Assembly (NCBI RefSeq): GCF_002335805.1
Contig: NZ_NISU01000002.1
Location: 488,843 to 520,842, forward strand
Direction: 5' to 3'
DNA: 32,000 bases
Source of the DNA: Bacillus sp. FJAT-45350
GTDB taxonomy: Bacteria > Bacillota > Bacilli > Bacillales > NISU01
Both the position numbers and the translations under genes were made by a program. This document shows, piece after piece, positions 10,765-30,167 of this stretch. The notes under the pieces were generated by a model, which saw only the letters and a list, made by a program, of their open reading frames with translations, was not told the origin of the DNA and ran no database searches. The stretch's first letter is position 1. The number at the start of each line of letters is the position of its first letter.

Positions 10765-11751
10765 TTAATATATTACGTTAATCGATCCATCTAGTATGCC
10801 CCACTCATTTATATCGTAGTGGTATTCATATTGAAGTGCAGGAGGACAAAGCAGGTTGTTGTTTTCAATAAGATAGGAATATGGTTTCCAGGAGCCGTTT
10901 ACATTGAGATAAGGAGTTCCTCTGACACAAACATTTGTCCCACTACCGTTAAAGTTAATTGGTGATTTAAAGTATGCATCACCAGATACGGTAAGAAGTC
11001 CATTACTCCCATTAAAGGTTAGGTCACTTTCAAAAAATGCATTACCACCAATCATGAGTACTCCATTACCTCCAATAACAACAGGTCTAGTGAAATGAAC
11101 GGAAGAAAATAACTGTGACCGACTATTACCGGATAAGCTCACGTTAGTTGTATATTTTTGTAAAGGTAAATCATTTGGATCGACAGGTATGCCGCCATTT
11201 TCTACAGGTTCATTACCTGTTTGGTAGGACCCTTTATTTTCAATGTTAAAAGTGACCACAACATCTTTTACAGACTTTGAAATATTTTCAGTAATTCCTG
11301 TACTTCTAATTTCAATCAACATATTTTTAAAATCAGTACAATTATTAGTATTAGTTGTAGTTTTAGAATTGATGATAATAGGTGCATTGTAATCAATGTC
11401 ATAGGTATAGCTTGAATTTGATTCAAATGAGAATTGTTTAGGTAAAGAAGTTGACTGTAACCTGTTTCTAATTTTTTCACAAAAGATCCGATCGTTGTTA
11501 ACGGTCTTAATATTTGGGTCTGCTTTTGCCTCTTTTATGGCCATTGCAATTTCGCTTTCTATTAAGGCAACCGAATATTGAATTCCCATCTCTGCTATGT
11601 CTTTTGCTTGAGTCATGGATTCTGTTTTTCCTATTTGTAAAGCAGTATTTAACGTTTTTGAAAAGAGAAGAGGTGCAAAGATCATAATTAAGACGATTGT
11701 TAATAGAACGAGGAGTAACGTATAACCACGTTCATTCATGATAGATTTCAT
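10765..11751 (-). CDS. PilX/GspK-like minor pilin-like protein (328 aa, no Glu5)
   Basis: The N-terminus MKSIMNERG/YTLLLVLLTIVLIMIF resembles a class III signal peptide but lacks Glu at +5. Last gene of the minor-pilin sub-operon. GGAGG RBS. Confidence 0.6.
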   Translation of the reverse strand: MKSIMNERGYTLLLVLLTIVLIMIFAPLLFSKTLNTALQIGKTESMTQAKDIAEMGIQYSVALIESEIAMAIKEAKADPNIKTVNNDRIFCEKIRNRLQSTSLPKQFSFESNSSYTYDIDYNAPIIINSKTTTNTNNCTDFKNMLIEIRSTGITENISKSVKDVVVTFNIENKGSYQTGNEPVENGGIPVDPNDLPLQKYTTNVSLSGNSRSQLFSSVHFTRPVVIGGNGVLMIGGNAFFESDLTFNGSNGLLTVSGDAYFKSPINFNGSGTNVCVRGTPYLNVNGSWKPYSYLIENNNLLCPPALQYEYHYDINEWGILDGSINVIY

Positions 11752-11765
11752 TAGTTACACGCCTC

Positions 11766-12236
11766 CTACAACCGCATTCTACTAATAATTGTACTTATTT
11801 CAAAAGTGTTATTTGGATTTGATTTATCCGTTAATACAAGTTGTTTAATGTGAAGGGCAGTTCTAGGGTTTATTGAATATGAGTTATTTTCTAGACTGTT
11901 GGTGTCTATTGTTGAAGATACATCATTCTCAGGCTGAAACTCTAAAAAAATATCATAGTATTGACTTGTAATTACCTGTGTATCCAAAACAATTTTCCAT
12001 ACACCATCAACAATTGTATATTCAATTTTGTAGTCACTATACGAATTCACATGAACTTCTCTTATAGTTGAAATAATTAAATTAGCTTCTTGTCGTAAAT
12101 TACTATGCTTTTCACTTATCGATTTCTGGTTATAACTTTGTATTAAAACACTTGATACTAGTCCCATCACAATAAATGTAAGAGTGAGCGTAGCCAATAA
12201 TTCTATTAACGTAATACCTCTTTTATTAAACATCAC
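11766..12236 (-). CDS. prepilin-type N-terminal cleavage/methylation domain protein (minor pilin, 156 aa)
   Basis: MMFNKRG/ITLIELLATLTL has Gly-1, Glu+5 and a hydrophobic helix. 4-bp overlap with the upstream gene. Confidence 0.8.
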   Translation of the reverse strand: MMFNKRGITLIELLATLTLTFIVMGLVSSVLIQSYNQKSISEKHSNLRQEANLIISTIREVHVNSYSDYKIEYTIVDGVWKIVLDTQVITSQYYDIFLEFQPENDVSSTIDTNSLENNSYSINPRTALHIKQLVLTDKSNPNNTFEISTIISRMRL

Positions 12237-12736
12237 TCTTTCCCCCTAATATATCCAAATGTTTCAGCGAGCTTAATGTTGGTAGAGGTACTATCTGAAT
12301 CGAAAATTTTGATGTGAACGAGGTACATGACTGGAAACTCAGGTTTAGTAAAATCAATTGATGTTTGTTTGGTTATGGTAACTTCCGGGTAGTAATACTT
12401 ATCGTTTTCTTCATAAAAACAAGATAGACCCTCAAGTTCATTTATTAACAAATTGGGATATACTGTGGGGTAGTCCGAACAGGTAATAACATGGTCATTT
12501 ACTATATTTCTATTATATTCCATCTCGACAATTCGAAGTGTTTTTTGTGCTAGGTTATATGCAACAATTCTATCACCATTTTTATTAGAGAAAACTAACG
12601 ACTGACTAAAAAAACTAAAAAACGTTGTTAAAACAATGGTTAAAATGACAACAGATGCCAAAACTTCAAGTAATGTGAAGCCTTTTTGTGTGAATAGCTT
12701 TCGCAAATACACGTTGATATCCCCTTTGACTATCAC
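12233..12736 (-). CDS. prepilin-type N-terminal cleavage/methylation domain protein (minor pilin, 167 aa in track)
   Basis: ...FTQKG/FTLLEVLASVVIL is a canonical class III signal. The track start is GTG 12736. An internal GTG at 12712 sits 7 nt after AAAGGGGA and would give a more typical 11-aa leader. Confidence 0.8.
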   Translation of the reverse strand: MIVKGDINVYLRKLFTQKGFTLLEVLASVVILTIVLTTFFSFFSQSLVFSNKNGDRIVAYNLAQKTLRIVEMEYNRNIVNDHVITCSDYPTVYPNLLINELEGLSCFYEENDKYYYPEVTITKQTSIDFTKPEFPVMYLVHIKIFDSDSTSTNIKLAETFGYIRGKE

Positions 12737-12771
12737 TATGAAAGAATAGTATTTTAGTTAAATTAATCACC

Positions 12772-12800
12772 ATGTTAATGTGTTTTATATGAAAAGTCAA
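12772..12800 (-). promoter_or_regulatory. candidate sigmaA-type promoter for the 12736-10765 minor-pilin sub-operon
   Basis: The minus strand reads TTGACT (12800-12795), a 17-nt spacer, then TAACAT (12777-12772), placed 35-65 nt upstream of the first gene. Confidence 0.3.
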
Positions 12801-12911
12801 AGGGATTTTTAATGTATATTTAGGGGGACCTTAATAATATTTAAACAGTTTGGTAGTTTGTTGAGGAGTAATTTATTTTATGTGATTTTAATGAGTAGAC
12901 CATATGTATAA

Positions 12912-12948
12912 TTTAACCAACCCCATCCAAAGGAAGGGGTTGGTTAAA
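12912..12948 (-). terminator. strong hairpin after the 594-aa pilin gene
   Basis: A 13-bp perfect stem tttaaccaacccc / ggggttggttaaa with an 11-nt loop. The trailing U-tract is weak, so terminator function is uncertain. Confidence 0.45.
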
Positions 12949-13010
12949 GAGTTACGTTTCATTGTAGTTATACTGGTATGTTTGTTGAATGATATGGAAC
13001 CTATTTCCTT

Positions 13011-14795
13011 TTAAGGACATTGGTTAAACGATTTATAAATAGTAGTATTAATTTTTAACCCGAAGTCATTTTGTTTTAGGTTACCACAAATTCTCTGGTT
13101 ATTTTCATTATTTTCAATAGTGGATGAACCGTCTTTTGTTAGTACACCTCCTTCTCCTAAAAACTCCATATCTTGGACATATAACTTATCTGAAGAGTTG
13201 GAGCTAGTCATTCTAAAGTCAACACTTTCTGCGTTTCCTGAATTTCCAGACCCAGTAGAATTTAATACTGCTCTATTCGCTTTTATATAGCCTCTACTGA
13301 ATATATCAATTCTTTTTACTGCCGTTAACTTGGAACCTTCCATTTCTATATTATTGCCATTTAGAGATATATAACTGTGTTGACTATTACCATCACTAGT
13401 AAAGTCAGCTCCATTAATTATTATGTCACCATTAGTGGATGTAAGTGTAATTGATTGGTTTCCATTGACGGTCCCAGTGATTTGAACTCCTTCTTCGACG
13501 ACTACACCTAAGGGAGCTGAATATTCTATTACACTTTCTTCAAATTTAACTGTCCCAACGCTACTTGTTATAATCAACTTCTGATTAGTATTTTCTGCAG
13601 TTAATATAATTTTAGGTTGTAAAGGTACAATAGTCTGATTTCCTTCAGAATCTTCTTCAATTACATAGCCTGGTTTAAAATTAGAGTTTGCATCTGTTAC
13701 ATTAAATCTTCTTTGTTTACTAGTTATTTTACACTCAACTTTTGCCGTAATTAAAATTTCGTCCCCGCTAGCAATTGAATGTGTAAGCTGGATTTGATGC
13801 TCTCCAGGGGAAATAAAATTGGTTTCAATTGTAAATGTGTTATTGTTCACTCTCTCAATGGTGATTTTTGCAGGAGCAGAATCATGATTGATAATGGTTA
13901 CACTATTGTCTCCTGCCTTTGGAATATTTTTTAACCCAGGTGGTTTTGTAATTTCAGTTATAGAACCACAGGAGTTACTAATAATAAAAGTTACTGGAAT
14001 ACTTAGTCGCTTATTATCAGCTTTAGCCCATATAACGATTTCATCATTATCTTTTAACAAAGGTACAGGAATATTGTGGCTACCACTACTATAATAATTT
14101 TCTTGGGTATCAACATTTATTCCATTTATAGTAATTATAAACTGCACATCATGGCTATCATTATTATGAATGGTAAGAGTAGCATCACCAATAGAAGGTT
14201 CATGTTCCAATGTAGGTGTTTTAGTCTGATCTAATAAAGCATCTTCTTTTTGAAGTAAAGAAAAGGATATAATTTCTTTAATATTATTTTGGAAAGTTAA
14301 TTCAAGACTAACCTGATGAAATGTTGACAAATTTCCACTATGACAAAGTTGTTCATTGTTGATAAGGGAAGGCGAACTCCAAGAAAAAATTCTAATGTCT
14401 TCTGCTACAACATAAGGGCTTAATATTTGCTCTTGACCTTCTCGTTCTATTTCTTTGACTAAAATTCCATCAGTTCCAGCTTCAGGTAAATAATATTCTC
14501 CTTGGTTTGTAGAAAGAACAAAACCACAATTCCCATTGATGTTTTCTGTTTCTATTAGCTTGTTACTTTTATAAAATAAGTTATCTACTAGTTGATTTTT
14601 CAATATCCTTGTATCTAATCGTTCCTGTGAATTTGTAGAAAGGATGTTATTAAAGGTAAAACTTTGAACTATTAAAGCATAGCTTCCTGCAATAACAAAA
14701 CCAATGATAGTAAGAGCGGCAAGGAGTTCTATGATGGTTATCCCTTTCGAGTTAAAATAAGGAAAGAATGTACCTTTACGTTTCATGATACTCAT
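13011..14795 (-). CDS. large modular type IV pilin (594 aa) with grafted repeat and beta-helix-like modules
   Basis: Class III signal ...FNSKG/ITIIELLAALTIIGF. The likely start is ATG 14786 (MKRKG...), 10 nt after GAAAGG. Two tandem repeats of about 80 aa lie at residues about 192-272 and 283-365. The C-terminus is G/N/S-rich and repeat-like. The terminal Cys570...Cys593 pair resembles a pilin D-region. Confidence 0.8.
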   Translation of the reverse strand: MSIMKRKGTFFPYFNSKGITIIELLAALTIIGFVIAGSYALIVQSFTFNNILSTNSQERLDTRILKNQLVDNLFYKSNKLIETENINGNCGFVLSTNQGEYYLPEAGTDGILVKEIEREGQEQILSPYVVAEDIRIFSWSSPSLINNEQLCHSGNLSTFHQVSLELTFQNNIKEIISFSLLQKEDALLDQTKTPTLEHEPSIGDATLTIHNNDSHDVQFIITINGINVDTQENYYSSGSHNIPVPLLKDNDEIVIWAKADNKRLSIPVTFIISNSCGSITEITKPPGLKNIPKAGDNSVTIINHDSAPAKITIERVNNNTFTIETNFISPGEHQIQLTHSIASGDEILITAKVECKITSKQRRFNVTDANSNFKPGYVIEEDSEGNQTIVPLQPKIILTAENTNQKLIITSSVGTVKFEESVIEYSAPLGVVVEEGVQITGTVNGNQSITLTSTNGDIIINGADFTSDGNSQHSYISLNGNNIEMEGSKLTAVKRIDIFSRGYIKANRAVLNSTGSGNSGNAESVDFRMTSSNSSDKLYVQDMEFLGEGGVLTKDGSSTIENNENNQRICGNLKQNDFGLKINTTIYKSFNQCP

Positions 14796-14853
14796 ACCTT
14801 TCTAAGTCAACTAGAATGCTTGAACACTACAATATCTAGCTTTGCCTGTTATT

Positions 14854-15354
14854 TTATTCTCGACTTATCTCTATATAATTTAATGAAGGATTTTCGTTTT
14901 CGACACCAGCTACTAGCTGGAGAGTTGCTTTCATTTTGAAAGGAACAGGAGTGGGTGTTTGACAGGTAACCTCTAACTGGTACTGGCTAGGGTCTCTAAA
15001 AAAGATGTCTTTAAGATCACCGCTTTCTCCGTCGTAATGGAGTGTATAATGACTTTGATTTACATATGTACAACTTTCCATAGGATTGGGAAGCTGCCTT
15101 CCATCATAATATGTTGTTGTAGGTTCATGCTCTTCTTTTATAATTGATAAAACGTCTTCATAAATCCTTGCTCTTTCAACCTCAATCATTCCTTCAACCG
15201 TATATCTCGCTACTGCTAGTTTTTCAATTTTGTTATTTCCTTTTAACTCATTAACTAACATAGACATTATCATGGCTGCAAGCATTGAAATGATAACAAT
15301 GGCAATCATTACAGTTAAAAGTGCTATCCCTTTTTGGTTGAACAACTTTTTCAT
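14854..15354 (-). CDS. pilin-like protein lacking Glu5 (PilX/GspK-like, 166 aa)
   Basis: MKKLFNQKG/IALLTVMIAIVII has Gly-1 and a hydrophobic helix but Thr at +5. Confidence 0.65.
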   Translation of the reverse strand: MKKLFNQKGIALLTVMIAIVIISMLAAMIMSMLVNELKGNNKIEKLAVARYTVEGMIEVERARIYEDVLSIIKEEHEPTTTYYDGRQLPNPMESCTYVNQSHYTLHYDGESGDLKDIFFRDPSQYQLEVTCQTPTPVPFKMKATLQLVAGVENENPSLNYIEISRE

Positions 15355-15381
15355 ACTGAGAACCTCTCAATTTCTTTATTA

Positions 15382-15771
15382 TCAGGGTCTAAAGAGTTGT
15401 GTTGTAATTTCAATTGGAGAGCCTGTGTCCATATCAACAGTTATGGTAACTTCGTACAACTTATTTAGACTATTAGGGTCAATTAGATTTGAAGAACTTG
15501 ATACATCTATAGATAGATTGAAAAGTTTATTATTCATTGTATTACTACAATTAGTAACAGTAAAACCTTCAATGTCAGTTTCACTTTTTACAAGCTCCAT
15601 ACAATTTTGAGCAACCAATAATCCATCTAACCTTTCCTGGTTAATCTGATTTGCAGTTAAACCGTTTCCGAGCATTGTACTAAAAGAAATGGCGAATATT
15701 CCAAGTATAGACATTGCCAAAATGACTTCAAGCAATGTTAGGCCATCTTGTTTTTCTTGTATAATTTTCAT
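15382..15771 (-). CDS. prepilin-type N-terminal cleavage/methylation domain protein (minor pilin, 129 aa)
   Basis: MKIIQEKQDG/LTLLEVILAMSILGI is a canonical class III signal. First gene of the minus-strand pilin block. Confidence 0.8.
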   Translation of the reverse strand: MKIIQEKQDGLTLLEVILAMSILGIFAISFSTMLGNGLTANQINQERLDGLLVAQNCMELVKSETDIEGFTVTNCSNTMNNKLFNLSIDVSSSSNLIDPNSLNKLYEVTITVDMDTGSPIEITTQLFRP

Positions 15772-18674: not shown

Positions 18675-20330
18675 ATGGCGCAAAAAAGGAAGCGTTTAGG
18701 TGACTTATTAGTTGATGCAGGGCTTATTACTGATAAACAATTACAAGAAGCACTTAGTACGAAAAAAGATGGTCAAAAGCTAGGGGATGCCCTATTAGAA
18801 CGTGACTATATCACGGAGCAGCAGTTAATTGAAGTATTAGAATTTCAATTGGGTATTCCTCACATTAGCTTACATCGATACCCTATTGATTCAGATGTCT
18901 TAAAAATCGTCTCAAAAGACTTTGCCCGTCGTAATTTATTGATGCCTCTAAAGAAAGAGGGGAATCAATTATTTGTTGCGATGGCTGATCCGATGGATTA
19001 TTTTTCAATTGATGATTTGCGAATGGCTACTGGGTTTCATGTGGAAACTGCGATTGCAGCAAAGGAAGAAATCATAACGGCTATAGAAAAACATTATAAT
19101 TTGGATGAGTCATTAAGTGAATTTGAGATGGATGAGCAAGAGGTAACGGCTGTTGCTGAAGGGGATATGGACGACGCCCCAGTGATCAAGCTTGTGAATC
19201 AAGTGTTAAAAGTAGGCTTAATAAACAAATCCAGTGATATTCACATTGATCCGCAGGAAAAGAAAGTATTAATTCGCTATCGTGTAGATGGTGTGTTAAA
19301 AACAGAACGTGCTCTTCCAAAGAGTGTTCAAAATTCACTTATTGCTCGTGTGAAAATCATGGCAAACCTAAATATTACTGAAAACCGCCTCCCCCAGGAT
19401 GGACGTATTAAAGTAAATATTGACCTACGACCAGTTGATTTACGTATATCCACTTTGCCAACAGTTTATGGTGAAAAGATTGTTATTCGTATTCTGGACT
19501 TAGGTGGGGCATTAAATAGAATCTCACAGCTAGGCTTTAATAAATTAAATCTTGAAAAATTTATGAAAATGATTGAACAGCCATCAGGGTTAATTTTAAT
19601 TACAGGTCCAACAGGTTCCGGTAAATCATCTACCTTGTATGCTGCCCTTAATCATTTAAATACAGAAAGCGTTAATATTATTACAGTTGAAGACCCGGTT
19701 GAATATCAAGTGGAAGGTATTAATCAAGTTCAAGTAAATTCAAGTATTGGGTTAACATTTGCTGCAGGACTTCGATCTATCTTGCGACAAGATCCGAATA
19801 TCGTCATGGTCGGGGAGATTCGTGACTCAGAAACAGCAGAAATCGCTATTCGTGCATCATTAACTGGACATGTTGTTTTAAGTACACTTCATACAAATAG
19901 TGCGATAGCAACGATTCCACGTCTGATTGACATGGATATTGAGCCATATCTTGTTGTGTCTTCATTATCTGGAGTTGTAGCACAACGACTTGTAAGGAGA
20001 ATTTGTACAAGTTGTAAAGAAGAGAATGAACCGACTGAAATGGAAGTCAATTTGTTTAAAAAGCGTGGTATGAAACCTGGTAAAGTATATAAAGGGAAAG
20101 GTTGCCCTTTATGTAATGATACTGGATATAAAGGACGATTAGCGATTCAAGAAATATTAGTCGTTGATGATGAAATTCGTCAAATGATGATGAATAACAA
20201 ATCAATCACTTCAATTAGAGATTACGCACTTAGGAGCGGAATGATATTCTTAGTCGATGACGGCTTATTAAAGGCGAAACAAGGGTTTACGACTATTGAA
20301 GAGGTATTGCGTGTTGCTTTAGATGAGTAA
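18675..20330 (+). CDS. pilB: type IV pilus assembly ATPase PilB (GspE family) with N-terminal MshEN-type domain
   Basis: AGGAGGGG RBS. Walker A GPTGSGKSS, the Asp box, His box and Walker B (VMVGEIRD). Tetracysteine CTSC...CPLC. The N-terminus is RLGDLLVDAGLITDKQLQEALSTK + KLGDALLERDYITEQQLIEVLEFQ. Confidence 0.95.
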   Translation: MAQKRKRLGDLLVDAGLITDKQLQEALSTKKDGQKLGDALLERDYITEQQLIEVLEFQLGIPHISLHRYPIDSDVLKIVSKDFARRNLLMPLKKEGNQLFVAMADPMDYFSIDDLRMATGFHVETAIAAKEEIITAIEKHYNLDESLSEFEMDEQEVTAVAEGDMDDAPVIKLVNQVLKVGLINKSSDIHIDPQEKKVLIRYRVDGVLKTERALPKSVQNSLIARVKIMANLNITENRLPQDGRIKVNIDLRPVDLRISTLPTVYGEKIVIRILDLGGALNRISQLGFNKLNLEKFMKMIEQPSGLILITGPTGSGKSSTLYAALNHLNTESVNIITVEDPVEYQVEGINQVQVNSSIGLTFAAGLRSILRQDPNIVMVGEIRDSETAEIAIRASLTGHVVLSTLHTNSAIATIPRLIDMDIEPYLVVSSLSGVVAQRLVRRICTSCKEENEPTEMEVNLFKKRGMKPGKVYKGKGCPLCNDTGYKGRLAIQEILVVDDEIRQMMMNNKSITSIRDYALRSGMIFLVDDGLLKAKQGFTTIEEVLRVALDE

Positions 20331-20345
20331 GAGGGGGAAATGTTG

Positions 20346-21386
20346 ATGAAAGAGCGTCTAGACAAACTATTAACAGATGCTTTTAAGTTAGGGGCATCAG
20401 ATATTCACTTAACAGTCGGTGTACCTCCAGTTCTTCGGATAAATGGAGAGTTAAAGCAATATGGAAAAGAGATTTTAAAACCTAAAGACACAGAAGCAAT
20501 GGCAAAAGCAATTATCTCAGATGTTCTTTGGAAAGCCTTTCAAAAAAAGGGCGAGCTAGACTTCTCACATGGAATCCCAGGCATATCTCGTTTCCGTGTA
20601 AACTCTTATTTTCAACGTTCATGTGTAAGTTTGGCTATAAGGGTCGTACCAACGACAATCCCGACATTAGAAGATTTAAAGATGCCATCTGTCCTGCAAA
20701 ATATCGCTAAAAAACCACAAGGGCTAGTTTTAGTAACAGGACCAACGGGTAGTGGTAAATCAACGACTCTTGCAGCTATGATTGCCTATATTAACGAGAC
20801 AATGAAGAAGCATATTATTACATTAGAAGATCCAATTGAGTATTTACACAAACACAAAAACTCAATTATTGACCAGCGTGAAATCGGATTTGATACACAA
20901 AACTTTGCAAATGGTCTTCGTGGATGTTTACGTCAGGACCCTGATATTATTCTAGTTGGTGAGATGAGAGACTTAGAAACAATCTCTATCGCGATAACTG
21001 CAGCTGAAACTGGTCATCTAGTATTCGGTACACTTCATACGACAGACGCACCAGCAACAATTGATCGTATTATCGATGTCTTCCCACCAGAACAACAGCC
21101 ACAAGTAAGAATACAACTTGCGAGTGTTTTAGGAGCTGTGATTTCTCAGCGCCTATTTAAAACAGCAGACGGAAAAGGTCGCAGAGCAGCAACCGAAATC
21201 TTAGTAAATAATTCAGCTGTAAAAAATCTAATTAGAAATGAAAAGATTCACCAGATTCATAGTGTCTTACAAACAAGTAAAGCAGCAGGAATGCACACCC
21301 TTGAAATGTCGATAAAAGAGTTATTAGAACAAAATGTAATTACTGATGAAGTTGCTGCACCATTTTTAAGTGAGAAGGGAAGCTAA
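20346..21386 (+). CDS. pilT: type IV pilus retraction (twitching) ATPase PilT
   Basis: Walker A GPTGSGKST, ILVGEMRD, and the PilT signature AVKNLIRNEKIHQI. The track start is 20340, but ATG 20346 is 8 nt after GAGGGGG. Confidence 0.95.
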   Translation: MKERLDKLLTDAFKLGASDIHLTVGVPPVLRINGELKQYGKEILKPKDTEAMAKAIISDVLWKAFQKKGELDFSHGIPGISRFRVNSYFQRSCVSLAIRVVPTTIPTLEDLKMPSVLQNIAKKPQGLVLVTGPTGSGKSTTLAAMIAYINETMKKHIITLEDPIEYLHKHKNSIIDQREIGFDTQNFANGLRGCLRQDPDIILVGEMRDLETISIAITAAETGHLVFGTLHTTDAPATIDRIIDVFPPEQQPQVRIQLASVLGAVISQRLFKTADGKGRRAATEILVNNSAVKNLIRNEKIHQIHSVLQTSKAAGMHTLEMSIKELLEQNVITDEVAAPFLSEKGS

Positions 21387-22591
21387 TGGCACTTTATCAA
21401 TATACAGGAAAACATTTTCAAGGGCGAACAGTCAAAGGTAAGATGAAAGCTGATTCGGAAAAAGATGTCCAAACAACATTGGCTAGCAAAGGGATTAAAA
21501 TCACTGAAGTTGAGGAAGTAAAAAGCCTTCTTCATAAAGAAATTACAATTGGTGAACGAGTAAAATCTCAAGATTTTGTAATTTATTTGAGGCAATTTGC
21601 CACATTGCTACAAGCAGGTATATCTGTTGTCGATACAACGAATATACTAGCAGACCAAACAAATAGTAAGTTGTTAAAAAAGATTTTAAAAGAAATCGAA
21701 GGAGAGCTACAAGCAGGCCGACCATTTTCAGAAGCAGCAGAAAAACACCGTAAAGTGTTTCCATCATTATTTATCAATATGGTAAAGGCAGGGGAAGCAG
21801 GTGGTAATCTAGATGAAATTCTAGACCGAATGGCTATTTACTTTGAAAAGCAACATAAAACAAAGCAAAAGGTCATGTCAGCTATGTCTTATCCACTTGT
21901 CGTAGGTGGGATTGCTGCGGTGATTGTTTTCTTCTTACTTACATTTGTTGTTCCGACGTTTGCTGATATGTTTGCTTCCTTTGGTTCTGAGTTACCGATG
22001 ATTACTCAAATTGTCATGAATGCCGGAGAAATATTTAAATCATTTTGGTGGCTCATTATATTAGCTGTAATCGGTTCGATCTTATTGCTTAAGTTTATTC
22101 GAGATAACAAAGCTACTAAATATTATTTTGATTATGCATTATTACGCATACCTATATTTGGGAAGCTATTGCAAAAGGCAGCACTTGCACGTATGACTAG
22201 AACATTAAGTTCACTCTTTTCTAGTTCTGTACCAATCTTGCAAGCTGTATCAATTGTGGAAAAAATTGTTGGGAACGAAGTACTAGCTAAGGTTATCCGT
22301 CAATCACGCGTCTCATTAGAAAAAGGGGAATCGATTGCAGGACCAATGCAAAAACATTGGGCGTTTCCACCACTAGTCACTCAGATGATATCAGTCGGAG
22401 AAAAAACGGGGGCACTTGATACGATGCTTGAGAAAGTAGCTGATTTCTATGAAGACGAGGTTGACGCAGCAACAGACCAAGTCAAATCGTTAATTGAGCC
22501 ATTAATGATTGTCGTTCTGGCTGGAGTTGTTGGAACGATCGTTGCTTCCATTGCCATTCCGATGTTCCAAATTTTTGATAGTGTTGGGTAA
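21386..22591 (+). CDS. pilC: type IV pilus platform protein PilC (GspF family, two T2SSF repeats)
   Basis: Duplicated T2SSF-type segments (FIRQFATLLQAGISV... / MTRTLSSLFSSSVPIL...) and 3 TM regions. TAATG overlap with pilT. Confidence 0.9.
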   Translation: MALYQYTGKHFQGRTVKGKMKADSEKDVQTTLASKGIKITEVEEVKSLLHKEITIGERVKSQDFVIYLRQFATLLQAGISVVDTTNILADQTNSKLLKKILKEIEGELQAGRPFSEAAEKHRKVFPSLFINMVKAGEAGGNLDEILDRMAIYFEKQHKTKQKVMSAMSYPLVVGGIAAVIVFFLLTFVVPTFADMFASFGSELPMITQIVMNAGEIFKSFWWLIILAVIGSILLLKFIRDNKATKYYFDYALLRIPIFGKLLQKAALARMTRTLSSLFSSSVPILQAVSIVEKIVGNEVLAKVIRQSRVSLEKGESIAGPMQKHWAFPPLVTQMISVGEKTGALDTMLEKVADFYEDEVDAATDQVKSLIEPLMIVVLAGVVGTIVASIAIPMFQIFDSVG

Positions 22592-22727
22592 GGAAATGAA
22601 ATAGGTAAATTGATTCAAGGATAGTTGATTATTTGTTGATTAATTACAATTAATTGCGATAATCAGTTAAAATTGTGACTAATTTCCCATGCTTGAGTAA
22701 TGTAGGTATGGTACTATTAGGTTGTAA

Positions 22728-22800
22728 ATAAATAGGATGCGATGAAGGGGAATCTGTATGTGGGCACTTGGATTACCTAGAGCAAGTAGTGCAACCGGCC
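22728..22800 (+). promoter_or_regulatory. c-di-GMP-II-type riboswitch aptamer, copy 1 (upstream of pilA)
   Basis: ...gatgaagggg...tgtGGGCACTTGGattacctagagCAAGTAGTGCAACCGGCC carries the blocks I recall as the c-di-GMP-II core (UGGGCACUUG-hairpin-AGUAGUGCAACCGACC). It is about 70 percent identical to a second copy at 24568-24640, and the internal hairpin is preserved (cttg/caag versus cttg/cgag). Confidence 0.7.
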
Positions 22801-22836
22801 AATTTTGTATACTGATACGAAGTTGGTTATTTTTTG
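22799..22836 (+). terminator. expression-platform terminator of riboswitch copy 1
   Basis: ccaattttgtat / atacgaagttgg forms a 12-bp stem (2 G-U pairs) with a 4-nt loop, then ttatttttt. The 5' arm starts inside the last aptamer nucleotides. Confidence 0.7.
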
Positions 22837-22914
22837 TTATTGCTTGTCCTATTCAAGCATACTATTATAAAAATATAGAAATAAAAAATGAATGAATTAT
22901 GAGGAGGAAGGGTT

Positions 22915-23454
22915 TTGTTAAAGAAAATGAAAGTTTTAAAGAATGAGAGAGGTTTGACACTTGTTGAGCTTTTGGCAGTAGTTGTTATTTTGGGGATTAT
23001 TGCCGCGATAGCGGTGCCGGCAGTAGGAAGTATTATTGATAATAGTAAGAAGGATGCACATGTGGCTAATGGTTTGCAGGCTATTAATTCTGCGAGGTTA
23101 GCAATTGCTACGGAGTCTACATTACAACCTACAGGAACGAATGTTACTATTATTCCATTAGGTTATTTATTAAAAGAGGGCTTGATTGAATCTATCACTA
23201 GTCCTGATAACAGTAAACAGTACGCTACAACAGAAACTGATGTTACAGCTAAAAATGTTGCTACTGCTACACTACCTGCTGAATCGTATGTACGTATAAC
23301 TAGTACTTCTGGTGGTTTTAATTATGAAGTATATTTACTTGGAGATAATAGTGGCACTGCTAAGTCAAGACATCTGGGTGAACAAAATACTCCAGCCACT
23401 GAAACTACTTTAAAAGGAGATAATTCAACAAAAAGAGCCACAGTAAAAAATTAA
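22915..23454 (+). CDS. pilA: major type IV pilin (179 aa precursor)
   Basis: TTG start about 8 nt after GAGGAGGAAGGG. Class III signal MLKKMKVLKNERG/LTLVELLAVVVILGIIAAIAVP. It is the only pilin gene on the plus strand and follows pilBTC and a riboswitch. Confidence 0.85.
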   Translation: MLKKMKVLKNERGLTLVELLAVVVILGIIAAIAVPAVGSIIDNSKKDAHVANGLQAINSARLAIATESTLQPTGTNVTIIPLGYLLKEGLIESITSPDNSKQYATTETDVTAKNVATATLPAESYVRITSTSGGFNYEVYLLGDNSGTAKSRHLGEQNTPATETTLKGDNSTKRATVKN

Positions 23455-23598
23455 AGAATAAAAGAATAGGTCCATAAAACAAAGGTACCAGTTACCTCAA
23501 AAAGACAAAAGTCATGGTTATTCCACATGAGGTGGACATAGCAAAGTACTAAAAATTATAGATTGAGATAAAGACTTAGTAGTAAGTAGGTCTTTATC

Positions 23599-23770
23599 TG
23601 GTGTCAGACACTAAATATAGACAAAACGGCTGATTTTTTCCATGTAGTATGGACAGTTATATAAATAGAGTGAACGAAATAGATATATGGTGTCAGACAC
23701 CAGATATAGACAAAATAGCTGATTTTTCCATGTAGTAGGGACAGTTATAAATAGAGTGAACGAAAGACCA
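23599..23770 (+). repeat. 89-bp tandem direct duplication (2 copies)
   Basis: Copy 1 starts at 23599 and copy 2 at 23688 (tggtgtcagacac[t/c]a[a/g]atatagacaaaa[cg/ta]gctgattttt(t)ccatgtagta[t/g]ggacagtta(ta)taaatagagtgaacgaaa). Each begins with the palindrome GGTGTCAGACAC(C). Confidence 0.85.
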
Positions 23771-23796
23771 ACTAGAATTCTAGTTGGTCTTTCGTT
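23759..23796. terminator. perfect 34-38-nt palindrome, probable terminator of the pilA transcript
   Basis: aacgaaagaccaactagaattctagttggtctttcgtt forms a stem of about 17 bp, followed by tag. It is symmetric, so it could act on either strand. Confidence 0.6.
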
Positions 23797-24000
23797 TAGA
23801 AGTAAAATAGGTACTAGGTACCAAGATAAGAAAAAAACTTGAGATTTTCCACATGAGTTGGACAGATTTGAATCTACTAGTTCTTTGTCTATTTTATATT
23901 TTAATTATTTGTCTACGAACTATAGATTGTACAATAAAATTGGCAACTCCATATTAATAAATGTATATTAAGATTTTGATATATCATTCATAAGCCCCCA

Positions 24001-24029
24001 TCGACAACTTACATATCCTGTAATATAAT
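24001..24029 (+). promoter_or_regulatory. candidate sigmaA promoter upstream of the 24045 ORF
   Basis: TCGACA (24001-24006), a 17-nt spacer, then TATAAT (24024-24029). Confidence 0.4.
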
Positions 24030-24044
24030 CAAGTTATCGAGCAC

Positions 24045-24500
24045 ATGAGAGAAGTGAGTAGGATGCCTTTTATAAGCAAAGATTCGAAATTTTATTCTTT
24101 TGTTGAGCCGTTGGTGTATTTCTTCCTGTTACTTTTCTTTTATATTGGTGGTTATTTTTTAGTGACTCATGCGACTTCTTCTATACAGGAGAGGGTTCAT
24201 GAGTACAATGCTTCTCAATTTAGTAAAATAGTGAAGTTACATTTAGCAACTGGTGAATTGGAGCCAGTGGATGGGACTATTTATTTCTCTGAGTTGATTG
24301 AGTTAGGATTATTAGGGGATGATGAGGCCTTTGTATCAGATATTCCTATGCTTTCTACTATCAAATCATCTTACTCTCCTGCGTCCTTTGTCCGAGTAGT
24401 GAGAGCTGATAATCAACCGGAGCTGCAAGTTCGGTTATGTATGTCATCCATCGAGGATTGTGTACCAGAAAAGGCAGTGTACGACACGATAGAAGAATAA
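24045..24500 (+). CDS. small membrane-anchored hypothetical protein, possibly a degenerate pilin-like protein (151 aa; alternative start 24063)
   Basis: N-terminus ...KFYSFVEPLVYFFLLLFFYIGGYFLV has a hydrophobic helix with an early Glu but no Gly-1. The later segment GTIYFSELIELGLLGDD resembles pilA VTIIPLGYLLKEGLIES. If the 24001-24029 promoter is real, ATG 24063 is the more plausible start. Confidence 0.5.
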   Translation: MREVSRMPFISKDSKFYSFVEPLVYFFLLLFFYIGGYFLVTHATSSIQERVHEYNASQFSKIVKLHLATGELEPVDGTIYFSELIELGLLGDDEAFVSDIPMLSTIKSSYSPASFVRVVRADNQPELQVRLCMSSIEDCVPEKAVYDTIEE

Positions 24501-24567
24501 AACTTTAATTTACTATATGTAAATAACTGTTTCATAAATTATGCACGTCATGTACAATAATAGTTAA

Positions 24568-24640
24568 TATAATAGGATGCTATGAACGGCTATCTCTAAT
24601 TGGGCACTTGGATAGCTTGGAGCGAGTAGTGCAACCGACC
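24568..24640 (+). promoter_or_regulatory. c-di-GMP-II-type riboswitch aptamer, copy 2 (upstream of pilD-pilMNO)
   Basis: aataggatgctatgaacggctatctctaatTGGGCACTTGGatagcttggagCGAGTAGTGCAACCGACC matches the remembered c-di-GMP-II core exactly over GGGCACUUG and AGUAGUGCAACCGACC. Confidence 0.75.
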
Positions 24641-24676
24641 AATTTTGCTTGAGGATAGCAAAGTTGGTTTTTTTTT
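24639..24676 (+). terminator. expression-platform terminator of riboswitch copy 2
   Basis: ccaattttgct / agcaaagttgg forms an 11-bp stem with a 7-nt loop, followed by nine T residues. Confidence 0.8.
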
Positions 24677-24783
24677 ACTATAAAGGTAGTCAATTTATAG
24701 CTTTTTTTCTAATTTAGGTAAAGATTTTTGTAAGTACATAGTATAATGGTCTTATAAGTTAATGGTAAAGGACGATAATTTGA

Positions 24784-25542
24784 ATGGATGTATTTATCTA
24801 TATTTATCTGTTTATATTTGGTTTGGTTTTAGGCTCATTTTATAATGTTGTTGGTTTGCGAGTACCGGTGGAAGAATCTATTGTAAAGCCACGGTCTCAT
24901 TGTCCGAATTGCAAACGTACATTAACAGCTTTGGATTTAGTACCTGTTTTTTCTTATTTATTAATTAGAGGGAAATGTCGTGGTTGTGGGTTAAAAATAT
25001 CTCCGTTGTATCCGTTAATGGAGTTATCGACAGGTCTTTTATTTGTCCTAGCTTATTATTTTATTGGATTGCAGTGGGAGCTTCTTGTTGCTTTATTGTT
25101 TATTTCTATGCTTGTGATTATTTTCGTTAGTGATGTTCGATATATGTTAATTCCAGATAAAATATTACTAGTATTTGCACCTATGTTTCTAGTTTTACGG
25201 GTATTCGTAGCCCCTTTATCTCCTTGGTGGGATATGTTATTGGGTGCTGTTGTCGGTTTTACACTTTTGTTTATAATTGCTGTTGTTAGCCGTGGTGGTA
25301 TGGGCGGTGGCGACATTAAATTGTTTGCAGTGCTTGGACTTGTGTTAGGGCTACAAGATGTCCTTTTAGCTTTCTTCTTATCAACATTGTTTGGTACCAT
25401 ATTTGGAATCGCTGGGTTACTGACTGGGAAAGTCAAACGAGGAAAACCAATGCCTTTTGGACCATATATCGTTCTTGGGACGATTCTAACTTACTTCTTT
25501 GGTCAAGACATTATACAATGGTATTTTGATTTGTTATGGTAG
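24784..25542 (+). CDS. pilD: prepilin peptidase / N-methyltransferase (A24 family; positional equivalent of B. subtilis comC)
   Basis: N-terminal CPNC...CRGC zinc-ribbon segment, 6-8 TM helices, and the catalytic-Asp contexts VSDVRYMLIPD and GGMGGGDIKLF. Confidence 0.95.
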   Translation: MDVFIYIYLFIFGLVLGSFYNVVGLRVPVEESIVKPRSHCPNCKRTLTALDLVPVFSYLLIRGKCRGCGLKISPLYPLMELSTGLLFVLAYYFIGLQWELLVALLFISMLVIIFVSDVRYMLIPDKILLVFAPMFLVLRVFVAPLSPWWDMLLGAVVGFTLLFIIAVVSRGGMGGGDIKLFAVLGLVLGLQDVLLAFFLSTLFGTIFGIAGLLTGKVKRGKPMPFGPYIVLGTILTYFFGQDIIQWYFDLLW

Positions 25543-25564: not shown

Positions 25565-26554
25565 ATGAATCTTTTTCAGTCAAAAAAAGACATGCGTACA
25601 AGTATCATTATTAAAGACCATGTTATTCGCTATGTTCATGCAAAGAAACCGAGCCTTGATTCGATTCGTTCATTTGGGGAGCGTTTCTTACCTGAAGGGG
25701 TCATTAGAGAGGGTCAAATTATTGACCGAGAAACGTTAGAGATTATTTTCGAGGAATGTATTGAGCATTGGAAGATTAAACGACATGCCATTCAATTCTG
25801 TGTACCAGATTCTTTTGTAGTCGTAAGGAATATATTGATACCAAAAGAAGTGGCAGAAGATGATATTCGAATGCATCTTCATATGGAAATGGGAGAGTCG
25901 ATTCACCTCCCTTTTGAAAACCCATCTTTTGATTTTAAGCTGTTAGGTGAAAAAGATGGACAGAAAGAGATATTATTAATTGCTTCTCCAGAAAAAGTCG
26001 TTATGGAGTTGTATGAATTTTTATCTGAATTAAAGCTTCAACCGAATGTAGCAGATGTTTCGTCACTTTCGTTGTATCGTTTATTTACGAAAGTCGATAA
26101 GGCACTTTCGGACGAGCATTTACTTCTTGTGCAGCTTGACCGTTCATCTATTAATCTAACAGTTTTCTATTCACATAAGCCAATGTTTACACGTCATTTT
26201 CGTTTAAATAGTGATGATGAGAAATGGGCAATTAAAGGTGATGTGGAGATGGAAAGCTTAGTTTGGGAAGGTGAAATTGAGGAGATTGATGGACAAGCAG
26301 AGGAGTTAATTACTGAGGTGGAACGAGTGATGAATTTTTATCGTTTCTCTGTTCATAAAGGAAAAGAAGGAGTCAACCGGATTGCGATTACAGGTGACCA
26401 TCCTTACTTAGAGCGAATGATAGACATTTGCAAAGAAAGCTTTGATTTGCCAGTAGAAACATTATTAGATGTAGAGATTATTTCAGCTACAGGAGCTATC
26501 CCTTATCAATTTCATGATACTGTCGGACTGATGCTGAAAAAAGAGGTGCGCTAA
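25565..26554 (+). CDS. pilM: PilM-like (actin/FtsA-fold) pilus assembly protein
   Basis: Size and position immediately before pilN with a TAATG overlap. Contains LLLVQLDRSSINLTVF-type phosphate-loop-like strands. The sequence evidence is weaker than the synteny evidence. Confidence 0.7.
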   Translation: MNLFQSKKDMRTSIIIKDHVIRYVHAKKPSLDSIRSFGERFLPEGVIREGQIIDRETLEIIFEECIEHWKIKRHAIQFCVPDSFVVVRNILIPKEVAEDDIRMHLHMEMGESIHLPFENPSFDFKLLGEKDGQKEILLIASPEKVVMELYEFLSELKLQPNVADVSSLSLYRLFTKVDKALSDEHLLLVQLDRSSINLTVFYSHKPMFTRHFRLNSDDEKWAIKGDVEMESLVWEGEIEEIDGQAEELITEVERVMNFYRFSVHKGKEGVNRIAITGDHPYLERMIDICKESFDLPVETLLDVEIISATGAIPYQFHDTVGLMLKKEVR

Positions 26555-27138
26555 TGTTAGTAGAAGTGAACCTGTTACCAGAAAAAGAGAAACGTGATTT
26601 AACACCAGTTATTATAATCCTTATTATTGGAATTTTATTGGTAACTGCTACTATTGTCCTATCCTCCCTACATAGCTCAGTATCTACAGAGGTTACTGAG
26701 CTAGAAAATGAGGTGCAAGAGTTGATGATATTATCAGAGACGACTAGACAAGAACTAACAGAGCAACAGACAAATAACATTGGACAGTTAGAAGAGGTTA
26801 TCTCTGCGTTAGATAAGCAGTTGTTTCCAGCTTCTTTGTTACTTGACCATATAGTTAGTCTTTTACCAGAAAGAGGATTTTTCCTTAATTTTAATTATTC
26901 TCTACCAAATGAAGTATATTTTGATGCTAGTTTTGATAGGATAGAGGAAATTGCTCAATTTAGTAATGCTCTCTACTCGTCTGATGCAATAGGAGAAGTG
27001 CTTCTGTCCGATATTAGCACGAACCAGATACTTGATGATGAAGACTTAAACCGTGATGAATATTTACCACGCTATGTGGCTAGCTATTCTATTAAAATAG
27101 TTCCAGTTAGCCTACGAGAAATGAGGGATGAAAATTGA
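26554..27138 (+). CDS. pilN: PilN-family pilus assembly protein
   Basis: N-terminal VNLLPEKEKR (the INLLP motif), then a single TM helix and a coiled coil. Confidence 0.8.
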   Translation: MLVEVNLLPEKEKRDLTPVIIILIIGILLVTATIVLSSLHSSVSTEVTELENEVQELMILSETTRQELTEQQTNNIGQLEEVISALDKQLFPASLLLDHIVSLLPERGFFLNFNYSLPNEVYFDASFDRIEEIAQFSNALYSSDAIGEVLLSDISTNQILDDEDLNRDEYLPRYVASYSIKIVPVSLREMRDEN

Positions 27139-27878
27139 ACCTATCATTTTCAAAAAAACATATCATTATTCTCGGAGTAGCGATATTCCTTCTGATTGCT
27201 AGTGCATTTTTCTTTTTTTCTCAATATATATCGCCAGCGATGAAAGAGAAAGAAGTTTTGGCAGCAGAAGTAGAATTTGAGAAAAGCCAGCTTGCTATAT
27301 TACGGGACCAACAGAGAGACACGACTACAGAAGCCATTGAGACTAGTATTGAATTACAACGTAAATTACCTGTAAAGCCATTAGTCGATCAATTTTTATT
27401 AGATATTTCTCGAGCAGAAGGACTGTCAAACAGTTATATTCTTTATATAGATATAAGTGAGGGCGGAGAGTTATCTTTACGTGCTACTGAGGATGGTGTT
27501 GAAGGTGAAACTTCAACTCCTGTAGAACAGAGCGAGGGTGAAGGAGGTCAAGAAACGACTCAAGAACAACAGGTAAATGTAGATATAGAGGGCCTAAAAC
27601 AAATTACCCTCAATCTATCTGTACGGGCAAATCGTTATCAAGATTTAGCTCAGTTTCTTCGAGAGCTTGATAGATTGCCGAGGATTTCTAGTATTGATTC
27701 AGTCTCTTTTATAGGTCATGATGAACAGATAATGGTAGATGATGTCCATGATAGCTTAGAGTTTAATGTGACAGTCTCTACTTATTTTTATCCAGAATTA
27801 CTAGAACTAGGGGAAGAAGGACCGAAAGTCGATTACCCTCGACCAAGTAATAAAGATAACCCGCTATATTCTAATTAA
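27135..27878 (+). CDS. pilO: PilO-like pilus assembly protein
   Basis: TTG start overlapping the pilN stop (TTGA), 6 nt after GAGGGA. It has a TM helix, a coiled coil and a C-terminal alpha/beta segment, with an acidic insert. Assigned mainly by position. Confidence 0.6.
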   Translation: MNLSFSKKHIIILGVAIFLLIASAFFFFSQYISPAMKEKEVLAAEVEFEKSQLAILRDQQRDTTTEAIETSIELQRKLPVKPLVDQFLLDISRAEGLSNSYILYIDISEGGELSLRATEDGVEGETSTPVEQSEGEGGQETTQEQQVNVDIEGLKQITLNLSVRANRYQDLAQFLRELDRLPRISSIDSVSFIGHDEQIMVDDVHDSLEFNVTVSTYFYPELLELGEEGPKVDYPRPSNKDNPLYSN

Positions 27879-29246: not shown

Positions 29247-29990
29247 GTGAGTAAAGTTGAAAAATATGGATTAAGCAAAGAAGTTTTTTACGTTCTTATT
29301 AATATTTTTAAAGACTATTCAGATATAATCGAGAAAGTTATATTGTTTGGTTCAAGGGCAAGAGGAGATTATAAAGAAACGTCTGACATTGATTTAGCAA
29401 TAAAGTTTAGAGAGAAAAATGACCAGATAACTAAAATAATAGATACTCTTTCCAATGAAAAAATTATCTATACGATTGATTTAATAGATGTCGATACAAT
29501 AAGTAATGAAAAGTTAAAGAATTATATAAATACTGAGGGAAAAGTGATATTTTTAACCAATTCTAAAGGTGAGGTTATCGACAATATGAATAAAATAATG
29601 GACAAGTTAACTGATTTAGAAAAAGCAACAAGAAAACTACATGAAAGTTTAAGTAGAGATCCTAGTCAAGATGATATTGTCATTGATGCAACAATACAAC
29701 GGTTTGAGTTTACATATGAATTATCATGGAAGTTAATGAAAGCCTTTTTAGAATATAATGGACATTTGGAAGTAACTAGTCCAAGAAGGACAATTCGGGT
29801 AGCTTTTAAAGAAGGTCTTATAACAAAAGGGGATGCATGGTTAGCAATGCTTGAAGACCGGAATAAGACTTCGCATACTTATGATGAAGAGACTGCAAAT
29901 AAAATATATAACAGTATTAAATTACATTTTATTCAGCTTTTTGATGAACTACTAATTGAGATGAAAAAGAGAATAAATCTTGAGTTATAA
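29247..29990 (+). CDS. single-chain fusion of a minimal nucleotidyltransferase (MNT, HI0073-like) and an HI0074-type HEPN/NTase-substrate-binding domain
   Basis: GTG start. N-terminal LFGSRARGDYKETSDIDLAI is the G-S-x(n)-D-x-D pol-beta NTase motif. C-terminal QRFEFTYELSWKLMKAFLEYNG ... LEDRNKTSHTYDE is the HI0074-family signature with an R-x4-H HEPN motif. Confidence 0.85.
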   Translation: MSKVEKYGLSKEVFYVLINIFKDYSDIIEKVILFGSRARGDYKETSDIDLAIKFREKNDQITKIIDTLSNEKIIYTIDLIDVDTISNEKLKNYINTEGKVIFLTNSKGEVIDNMNKIMDKLTDLEKATRKLHESLSRDPSQDDIVIDATIQRFEFTYELSWKLMKAFLEYNGHLEVTSPRRTIRVAFKEGLITKGDAWLAMLEDRNKTSHTYDEETANKIYNSIKLHFIQLFDELLIEMKKRINLEL

Positions 29991-29992
29991 AA

Positions 29993-30031
29993 TAGGTGCT
30001 GGCTAATTAGTCCAGCACCTACGATTATTTT
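29993..30031 (+). terminator. intrinsic terminator after the MNT-HEPN gene
   Basis: taggtgctgg / ccagcaccta forms a 10-bp stem with a 9-nt loop, then cgattatttt. Confidence 0.65.
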
Positions 30032-30167
30032 AGAGCTTATCAAACTACTAGATTCCATAAAAGTGCCTACATAAAAAATCTCTAATCTTCTCCAAAATCT
30101 AGTTCTATCATTCGAACCGATATAATAGAATATAGTATAGAGTGAGTGAACGAGGGGAGATGGTAGA

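Follow-up and report, generated by a model that had tools for sequence, protein, structure and literature searches.

How the synthesis of the major pilin is set in an aerobic, spore-forming member of the Bacillaceae, a group in which type IV pili are to our knowledge almost unstudied, is the question raised by the pilus locus of Bacillus sp. FJAT-45350. The locus lies in a 32,000-nucleotide (nt) stretch of contig NZ_NISU01000002.1 (positions 488,843 to 520,842 of the forward strand), called the window here and numbered from its first letter, in which pilC and the pilin gene are co-oriented and 323 nt apart (spacer 22592-22914). An earlier note had placed in this spacer, at 22728-22836, a riboswitch of the class II cyclic dimeric guanosine monophosphate (c-di-GMP) type with a terminator. 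The span correctly takes in both an aptamer and a terminator, and the reading of the downstream gene as the major pilin is reasonable given its N_methyl motif and its position after the genes for PilB, PilT, and PilC. The analysis presented here leads to a similar answer, and we put at about 85% the probability that 22726-22838 is a genuine class II c-di-GMP riboswitch acting as a transcriptional ON switch for the major pilin gene.

The whole window was scanned on both strands with Rfam 15 at gathering thresholds. Two matches were returned, both to RF01786 (c-di-GMP-II), both full-length, and both on the plus strand. The first, designated RS1, lies at 22726-22809 and covers model positions 1-84 of 84 with a score of 75.4 bits (E=1.6e-15), above the RF01786 gathering score of 53.5 bits and well outside what chance would give; the c-di-GMP-II riboswitch called in the pilC-pilin spacer is thus borne out by family membership, by intact core nucleotides, and by the covariation described below. 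The second, designated RS2, lies before pilD and was absent from the earlier finding. Any annotation based on Rfam would flag both. A covariance model built from 14 aptamers was used beside Rfam on the comparison loci and gave RS1 88.7 bits; a regular-expression screen for the core had produced many chance matches and was superseded by this calibrated model.

The c-di-GMP-II class was reportedly defined by Lee and colleagues in 2010, and the crystal structure of the Clostridium acetobutylicum RNA (PDB 3Q3Z) is said to have been solved by Smith and colleagues in 2011. The pseudoknot pairs of RS1 and RS2 are presumably those of the 3Q3Z structure, on which their assignment relies. The parts of RS1 and its target are as follows.

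22726 to 22809, plus strand: RS1 aptamer, c-di-GMP-II class.
22726 to 22736 with 22799 to 22809, plus strand: helix P1.
22738 to 22740 with 22782 to 22784, plus strand: helix P2.
22747 to 22754 with 22771 to 22778, plus strand: helix P3.
22762 to 22767 (GGGCAC) with 22789 to 22792 (GUGC) and 22795 to 22796 (CC), plus strand: pseudoknot.
22797 to 22838, plus strand: intrinsic terminator found by a terminator scan, with a 14-bp stem (22797-22810 with 22815-22828), the loop ACUG, and the U-tract ATTTTTTGTT.
22915 to 23454, plus strand: pilA-like pilin gene (179 amino acids, leader ...NERG|LTLVELL; Pfam N_methyl, E=3.4e-07), with a ribosome binding site (RBS), GAGGAGG, at 22901-22907.

The motif blocks first recognized in the spacer, GGGCACTTGG (22762-22771) followed by ATTACCTAGAG and then CAAGTAGTGCAACCGGCC (22783-22800), are present in RS1. 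Their interpretation as the feet of a hairpin did not survive, since GGGCAC lies in the loop of P3 and pairs with GUGC and CC to form the pseudoknot. By the model alignment, RS1 has all of the highly conserved core nucleotides of RF01786 (GA, UGA, UGGGCAC, GAG, AGU, and GUGCAACCG). RS1 and RS2 share the P1-P2-P3 arrangement, the pseudoknot, the conserved core, and the full length of c-di-GMP-II RNAs of the 3Q3Z type and do not differ from them at the level of the aptamer; the Rfam model does not cover the expression platform. Dissociation constants of class II aptamers for c-di-GMP are given as 0.2-2 nM (cited in PMC7583470).

The core also bears on the identity of the ligand. Variant GEMM-I RNAs sense ligands other than c-di-GMP, and the same is suspected for the c-di-GMP-II-GAG and c-di-GMP-II-GCG variants of the same Rfam clan. 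At both RS1 and RS2, other families of clan CL00127 give overlapping matches with lower scores, and sequence confers no certain specificity. It is nevertheless extremely unlikely that a functional aptamer here responds to something else, such as another cyclic dinucleotide: the top-scoring family at both sites is the canonical RF01786, the GUGCAACCG core is unchanged in RS1, RS2, and their orthologues, and the surroundings are related to c-di-GMP, with a GGDEF-family diguanylate cyclase (active site GGEEF) and an MshEN-type PilB encoded in the window, both of which were counted in favor of the c-di-GMP reading.

Comparison loci consisted of 80 loci around PilC homologues, from contigs representing one genome per species, together with ten from the closest PilC relatives; where they must be told apart, they are given by L numbers. 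Across the 14 aligned aptamers, changes on both sides of the helix were found at all eight pairs of P3, in which 92.9% of cells were paired, and at all three pairs of P2. The whole structure had 81.8% of cells paired, versus 33-42% with slid partners, and the observed covariation score was reached by 0 of 500 shuffles. There were 24 invariant columns. All 14 aptamers keep the two strands of the 6-bp pseudoknot complementary; each of the six pairs is invariant, and covariation is therefore unable to support it.

The terminator hairpin (22797-22828) and the aptamer have 22797-22809 in common, corresponding to aptamer positions of about 72-84. A 12-bp stem abutting the aptamer had been described; the stem measures 14 bp, and its 5' arm overlaps the aptamer instead, taking in the whole 3' strand of P1 (22799-22809) together with G72 and G73. 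The T-rich tail after the hairpin reads AUUUUUUGUU. Since the P1 3' strand doubles as the terminator 5' arm, closure of the aptamer and formation of the terminator are mutually exclusive, and a P1 stabilized by ligand is able only to block the terminator, which is the design of an ON switch. This overlap, like the family membership, the covariation, and the genomic position of RS1, is a direct observation on sequence and structure. For RS1 and RS2 alike, c-di-GMP binding, control of termination, and the ON direction in vivo are inferred.

The minimum free energy (MFE) structures of the full leaders always hold the terminator hairpin, and imposing the nested aptamer helices raises the energy by 9-25 kcal/mol over the MFE, depending on transcript length. 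The ligand-free default is thus expected to be termination, and leader folding was taken as evidence for this default state only and not for the aptamer. Because the nested aptamer helices are less stable than the terminator by about 20 kcal/mol, the choice between the two must be kinetic. In the mechanism we propose, the nascent leader without ligand would form the very stable terminator at 22797-22828, and RNA polymerase would halt at the U-tract near 22838, ahead of pilA. With c-di-GMP bound, the pseudoknotted aptamer would shut P1 and sequester 22797-22809, the terminator would be unable to nucleate, and transcription would continue into pilA, whose start codon lies 105 nt past the aptamer end on the same strand. 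The aptamer state would require both the pseudoknot and the ligand. The ligand would have to be captured during transcription, and the decision would fall in the 20-30 nt or so transcribed after the P1 3' strand and before the terminator 3' arm.

The same arrangement recurs in relatives. An aptamer between pilC and the pilin gene was found in 12 of the 12 examined genomes with a PilC at least about 63% identical, and in two metagenome contigs. Carriers include Anaerobacillus alkalilacustris, A. arseniciselenatis, and A. alkalidiazotrophicus; Halalkalibacter nanhaiisediminis, H. okhensis, and Alkalihalophilus lindianensis; and Bacillus sp. Marseille-P3661, bacterium LRH843, Calidifontibacillus oryziterrae, and Alteribacter aurantiacus, along with one metagenome contig from the European Nucleotide Archive. 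The pilin of the window shares 43-65% identity with its positional counterparts in relatives. Neither Rfam nor the covariance model detected an aptamer in some 46 other Bacillales pilus loci with a PilC at most about 61% identical, which include those of Neobacillus, Metabacillus, Anoxybacteroides, Planococcus, and most Paenibacillus. Among 80 metagenomic loci collected around pilD, three carried an aptamer, in each case about 620-720 nt 5' of pilD; L093 and L107 have the order pilC-aptamer-pilin-pilD, and L146, on a contig truncated at its 5' end, has its aptamer about 620 nt before pilD, consistent with the same layout.

Of 18 leaders compared, 17 head a pilin gene or, in one Paenibacillus, pilB, and in 16 a terminator begins 11-17 nt before the 3' end of the aptamer, with diverse stem sequences. 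The mutually exclusive layout of P1 and terminator kept in these 16 supports the ON logic that had been proposed by analogy with Clostridioides difficile. In the Paenibacillus, P. thalictri (L043 6898-6982), aptamer and terminator lie directly before pilB-pilT-pilC, and the predicted gated unit is the assembly machinery instead of the pilin. In an Anaerobacillus metagenome-assembled genome, the aptamer heads a cluster of pilin, pilD, and minor pilin genes. Bacterium LRH843 has an extra riboswitch with terminator beside its pilus locus (L088 102-186), before a PAS-GGDEF gene that is followed by a PilZ gene, and this copy appears to be an unusual case of riboswitch control over genes for c-di-GMP metabolism or reception. 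Small hypothetical open reading frames (ORFs) of 39-55 amino acids have been called over the riboswitch in L082 (11238-11405), L083 (11353-11478), and L090 (11281-11400); they are probably annotation artefacts, and the riboswitch would explain several such spurious calls in public records.

The two leaders without a terminator are those of L093 (2104-2275) and L107 (1633-1800), in which the 3' core of the aptamer is slightly different (GUGCACCCCG) and a CCCC run in the 3' part of the aptamer would, by prediction, base-pair with GGGG in the Shine-Dalgarno sequence of the pilin gene. These leaders would represent a translational platform for the same pilin switch logic, and they indicate that such platforms exist in the family. 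There is only the faintest chance that RS1 likewise acts on translation, or as an OFF switch, in place of antitermination, because its terminator 5' arm is the P1 3' strand, so that a stabilized P1 only prevents termination, and because the pilA RBS lies about 65 nt past the terminator and is unpaired with the aptamer in any fold.

Where transcription of the RS1-pilin leader begins determines which genes share its transcript. The relevant features upstream are as follows.

18675 to 20330, plus strand: pilB (Pfam MshEN and T2SSE).
20340 to 21386, plus strand: pilT (Pfam).
21386 to 22591, plus strand: pilC (Pfam), whose product matches a Bacillus sp. FJAT-45350 protein at 100% identity.
22636 to 22663, plus strand: best sigma-A-like promoter candidate for the RS1-pilin leader, TTGATT-16-TGcGATAAT, with an upstream TG.

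Neither Rfam nor the 14-aptamer model, run over the whole window, found a riboswitch before pilB-pilT-pilC. An AT-rich segment at 30025-30100 on the minus strand scored 19.6 bits (E=0.035) with the latter model, was unreported by Rfam, and was treated as noise.

A single pilB-pilT-pilC-pilA transcript had been proposed, with RS1 inside it. Such a transcript is conceivable in that the terminator scan found no terminator between the pilC stop (22591) and the RS1 aptamer, which makes read-through from pilB-pilT-pilC into RS1 possible; a dedicated promoter for RS1 and the pilin is at least as likely, judging from the upstream sequences. Every relative has a promoter-like TAGAnn-17-TAnAAT element, with a fixed 17-nt spacing, between the pilC stop and the aptamer, and with this element kept close ahead of the aptamer, an exclusively intra-operonic position of the switch is unproven. 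The window itself holds several weak promoter candidates upstream of RS1, of which none is firmly assignable; the site TTGAGT-16-TATTAG beside the RS1 aptamer was rejected as the favored promoter, its -10 element being without the invariant final T. That RS1 serves mainly as an attenuator within a long pilB-pilT-pilC-pilA transcript, and not as the head of its own unit, is therefore rather unlikely: the co-orientation of pilC and pilin across only 323 nt and the lack of a terminator-like site between the pilC stop and the aptamer fit it, whereas the element kept in every relative and the candidate at 22636-22663 speak for separate initiation. The attenuator is in any case compatible with a promoter of RS1's own, and the gate on the pilin is identical under both.

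The unit gated by RS1-type aptamers appears to extend beyond the pilin in relatives, where a hairpin of modest strength with a short U-run comes after the pilin gene and pilD-pilMNO begins 32-640 nt further on. Across such short spacers and weak terminators, part of the machinery would be gated too, and the lone riboswitch of these genomes probably also influences pilD-pilMNO. The suggestion that the switch sets the ratio of pilin to machinery thus holds only in part.

The strain analyzed here departs from its relatives in that pilD-pilMNO has an aptamer of its own, RS2, with the following features.

24531 to 24558, plus strand: RS2 promoter candidate, TTCATA-16-TACAAT, whose -10 element ends 7 nt before the aptamer.
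24566 to 24649, plus strand: RS2 aptamer, c-di-GMP-II class (Rfam RF01786, 71.5 bits, E=2.1e-14, model positions 1-84 of 84; 14-aptamer model, 88.2 bits).
24637 to 24679, plus strand: RS2 terminator, a 13-bp stem (24637-24669) followed by T7, overlapping the P1 3' strand as in RS1.
24784 to 25542, plus strand: pilD (Pfam A24_N_bact and Peptidase_A24).
25565 to 26554, plus strand: pilM (Pfam PilM_2).
26554 to 27138, plus strand: pilN-like gene.
27135 to 27878, plus strand: pilO (Pfam PilO).

The RS2 module (24566-24679) sits 105 nt 5' of pilD, at the head of pilD-pilM-pilN-pilO, and would put the same c-di-GMP gate on these four genes. Its one deviation from the conserved nucleotides is an A for U at model position 34, in a loop. 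Similarity between RS1 and RS2 is confined to aptamer and terminator (about 114 nt at about 80% identity), the two terminators have a U.G wobble at the same position, and the two modules are mutually closest in the set, with 79% identity versus at most 75% to any other. A counterpart of RS2 before pilD is missing in the 12 related genomes, in the roughly 46 more distant Bacillales loci, and in the 80 metagenomic pilD loci. RS2 looks like a lineage-specific duplication of the whole RS1 module, which is the simplest reading of these comparisons.

Several observations weigh against the interpretation of RS1 and RS2 developed so far. P1 is weak in the sense that only 62% of its cells are paired across the 14 aptamers, partly from register shifts, and in RS1 it has about 7 bp with an A.A mismatch. 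Nearest-neighbor folding, applied to the leaders and to the aptamers in isolation, fails to recover the aptamer fold, with leader z-scores of only -1.1 and -1.9, so that support for the fold comes from the covariance model and covariation. RS2 is nearest to RS1 by only a narrow margin. Downstream of the RS2 terminator and ahead of the pilD start, a perfect TATAAT (24742-24747) that has no good -35 element could be a source of basal pilD expression that is independent of the riboswitch. Of 16 c-di-GMP riboswitches predicted in C. difficile, 5 proved nonfunctional (PMC6366702), and a good motif match is therefore no guarantee of function.

These considerations raise the possibility that one or both aptamers are decayed, nonfunctional relics and that the pilin is controlled elsewhere, to which the several P1 mismatches in RS1 and RS2, and the presence of RS2 in one genome only with its A for U at position 34, would also fit. 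We regard this as very improbable. The position of RS1, its core, and its overlap with the terminator are kept in at least 12 species with compensatory changes, which indicates purifying selection, and RS2, though about 20% diverged, retains all of the pseudoknot nucleotides, a fully paired P3, and an intact 13-bp terminator. Working riboswitches at both sites therefore remain the preferred reading.

The origin of RS2 may be connected with the region between pilin and pilD, which in the window measures 1329 nt and holds repeats, a probable strong terminator, a promoter-like site, a small gene designated ORF151, and RS2. Its main features 5' of RS2 are as follows.

23759 to 23796, no strand assigned: perfect 19+19-nt palindrome without a loop spacer (AACGAAAGACCAACTAGAA/TTCTAGTTGGTCTTTCGTT), 3' of the pilin gene.
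24001 to 24029, plus strand: strong promoter-like site before ORF151, TCGACA-17-TATAAT, 11 of 12 matches.
24045 to 24500, plus strand: ORF151, probable start ATG at 24063, encoding a small protein with a degenerate pilin-like N-terminus.

The palindrome is far stronger than the 8-10-bp hairpins that follow the pilin gene in relatives and is probably a strong terminator closing the RS1-pilin transcript. ORF151 has no Pfam domain match. Its N-terminus (MPFISKDSKFYSFVEPLVYFF...YIGG) resembles the class III signal of pilins minus the Gly-1 cleavage site, and it is weakly similar to neighboring genes (E of about 0.03-0.9) with a shared N-terminal pattern, ...F/Y..E...YIGG; it looks like a degenerate pilin-like protein. 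Small genes occupy the same position between pilin and pilD in H. okhensis and Marseille-P3661 (L085 12032-12418 and L087 12025-12576), with 15 nt to pilD and no aptamer between. For this reason we rejected the idea that RS2 arrived along with ORF151.

The segment from the pilin gene to ORF151 (23478-23864) is rich in repeats. It contains a tandem duplication of about 88 nt (23595-23680 and 23684-23765) with the palindrome GGTGTCAGACAC(C) in each copy, and the hairpin motif TTCCACATGAG(G/T)TGGACA occurs twice, at 23519-23538 and 23845-23864. These motifs are found nowhere else in the window and could be an insertion scar or an element of the repetitive extragenic palindromic (REP)-like type.

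A tentative scenario, which we hold to be somewhat short of an even chance, is that about 1.3 kb of inserted or expanded sequence separated pilD-pilMNO from the gated pilin transcript and that a duplicated module placed between ORF151 and pilD restored its control by c-di-GMP. Together with the MshEN-type PilB and the nearby cyclase, the locus would then have three c-di-GMP checkpoints, on pilin synthesis, on synthesis of the peptidase and the alignment complex, and on ATPase activity, and the thresholds of RS1 and RS2 might differ.

The protein side of this scenario involves PilB and the cyclase. The cyclase gene (7657-9333; Pfam) encodes a GGDEF diguanylate cyclase with membrane and GAF regions and a GGEEF site, and no RxxD I-site was seen in it. 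It lies between folC and the pilus genes, a placement kept in L085 (3268-4998), L089 (2955-4676), and L092 (3064-4743), so that the enzyme may be dedicated to the pilus. PilB matches the MshEN domain (Pfam, E=3.4e-22). The MshEN consensus consists of two tandem 24-residue motifs, (R/K/L)LGxx[LVI][LVI]xxG[LVI][LVI]xxxxLxxxLxxQ (PMC11731258). In the PilB of the window, motif I (RLGDLLVDAGLI...L...L..K) runs R7-LGDLLVDAGLITDKQLQEALST-K30, where K takes the place of the final Q. Motif II (KLGDALLERDYI...L...L..Q) runs K35-LGDALLERDYITEQQLIEVLEF-Q58 and has D for G and Y for L, and the two motifs are 4 residues apart, not 5. PilB is likely a second, posttranslational input of c-di-GMP into the same pilus.

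Between the cyclase gene and pilB lies a divergent six-gene operon on the minus strand (10765-15771), four genes of which encode N-methylation motifs and which includes a giant pilin-like protein of 594 amino acids (13011-14795). Presumably it encodes minor pilins or a tip complex; no riboswitch was found before it. Further downstream, between the pilus locus and a spoVID-like gene, a single ORF at 29247-29990 on the plus strand fuses a Polbeta/NTP_transf_2 domain to an NTase-substrate-binding/HepT-like domain and resembles a fused MNT-HEPN toxin-antitoxin pair.

Apart from the primary papers of Lee (2010) and Bordeleau (2015), which lay outside the search, the literature searched holds no description of class II riboswitch control of Bacillaceae pili, and within that literature C. 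difficile alone has riboswitch-controlled pili. The kind of regulation proposed here is already known from C. difficile and is for the field at large confirmatory, not surprising; of more interest are the duplication of the module and a distribution that is limited to a clade and varied in its wiring. A c-di-GMP gate on the pilin would be a conserved trait of a whole clade of bacilli, alkaliphilic and halophilic, to which Halalkalibacter, Alkalihalophilus, Anaerobacillus, Alteribacter, and Calidifontibacillus belong. With the switch before pilA, before pilB in Paenibacillus, duplicated before pilD in this strain, or on a translational platform in two metagenome relatives, these organisms offer a ready comparative system for the evolution of c-di-GMP wiring in pili.

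The closest known system is the Cdi-2-4 riboswitch, reportedly described upstream of C. difficile pilA1 by Bordeleau and colleagues in 2015. It shares with RS1 the aptamer class, a major type IV pilin as target, and the predicted terminator and read-through logic, and in both systems there is some read-through from pilA to downstream pilus genes. The precedent on which the ON reading had drawn is sound: Cdi-2-4 reads through at high c-di-GMP, and all four class II switches of C. difficile are ON switches (PMC6366702; McKee et al. 2018, PMC6200980). Cdi-2-4 heads its whole cluster (pilA1, then pilB1 and others), whereas RS1 lies in midcluster, after pilB-pilT-pilC, so that the ATPases and the platform protein fall outside its control; only pilA follows RS1 directly, and pilD-pilMNO is reached via RS2, the second copy present at the window locus. 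The host of Cdi-2-4 is Clostridioides, whereas that of RS1 belongs to the aerobic or alkaliphilic Bacillaceae and is not a Clostridium.

Two other known systems share parts of this arrangement. The PilB of the window resembles the MshEN ATPases, such as Vibrio cholerae MshE and Thermus thermophilus PilF (PMC11731258), in its tandem (R/K)LGxx[LVI][LVI]...L...L..Q motifs; this putative receptor is a protein and not an RNA, and its motif II deviates by the G-to-D and L-to-Y changes. The GEMM-I riboswitches Bc1 and Bc2 before cap in the Bacillus cereus group (PMC4933901, PMC11218506) are likewise c-di-GMP-sensing leaders of Bacillaceae that serve surface or adhesion functions, and Bc2 is an antitermination ON switch, as RS1 is predicted to be. 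In contrast, the GEMM-I fold is unrelated to the class II pseudoknot, and the targets of Bc1 and Bc2 are different, namely, a collagen adhesin and chemotaxis.

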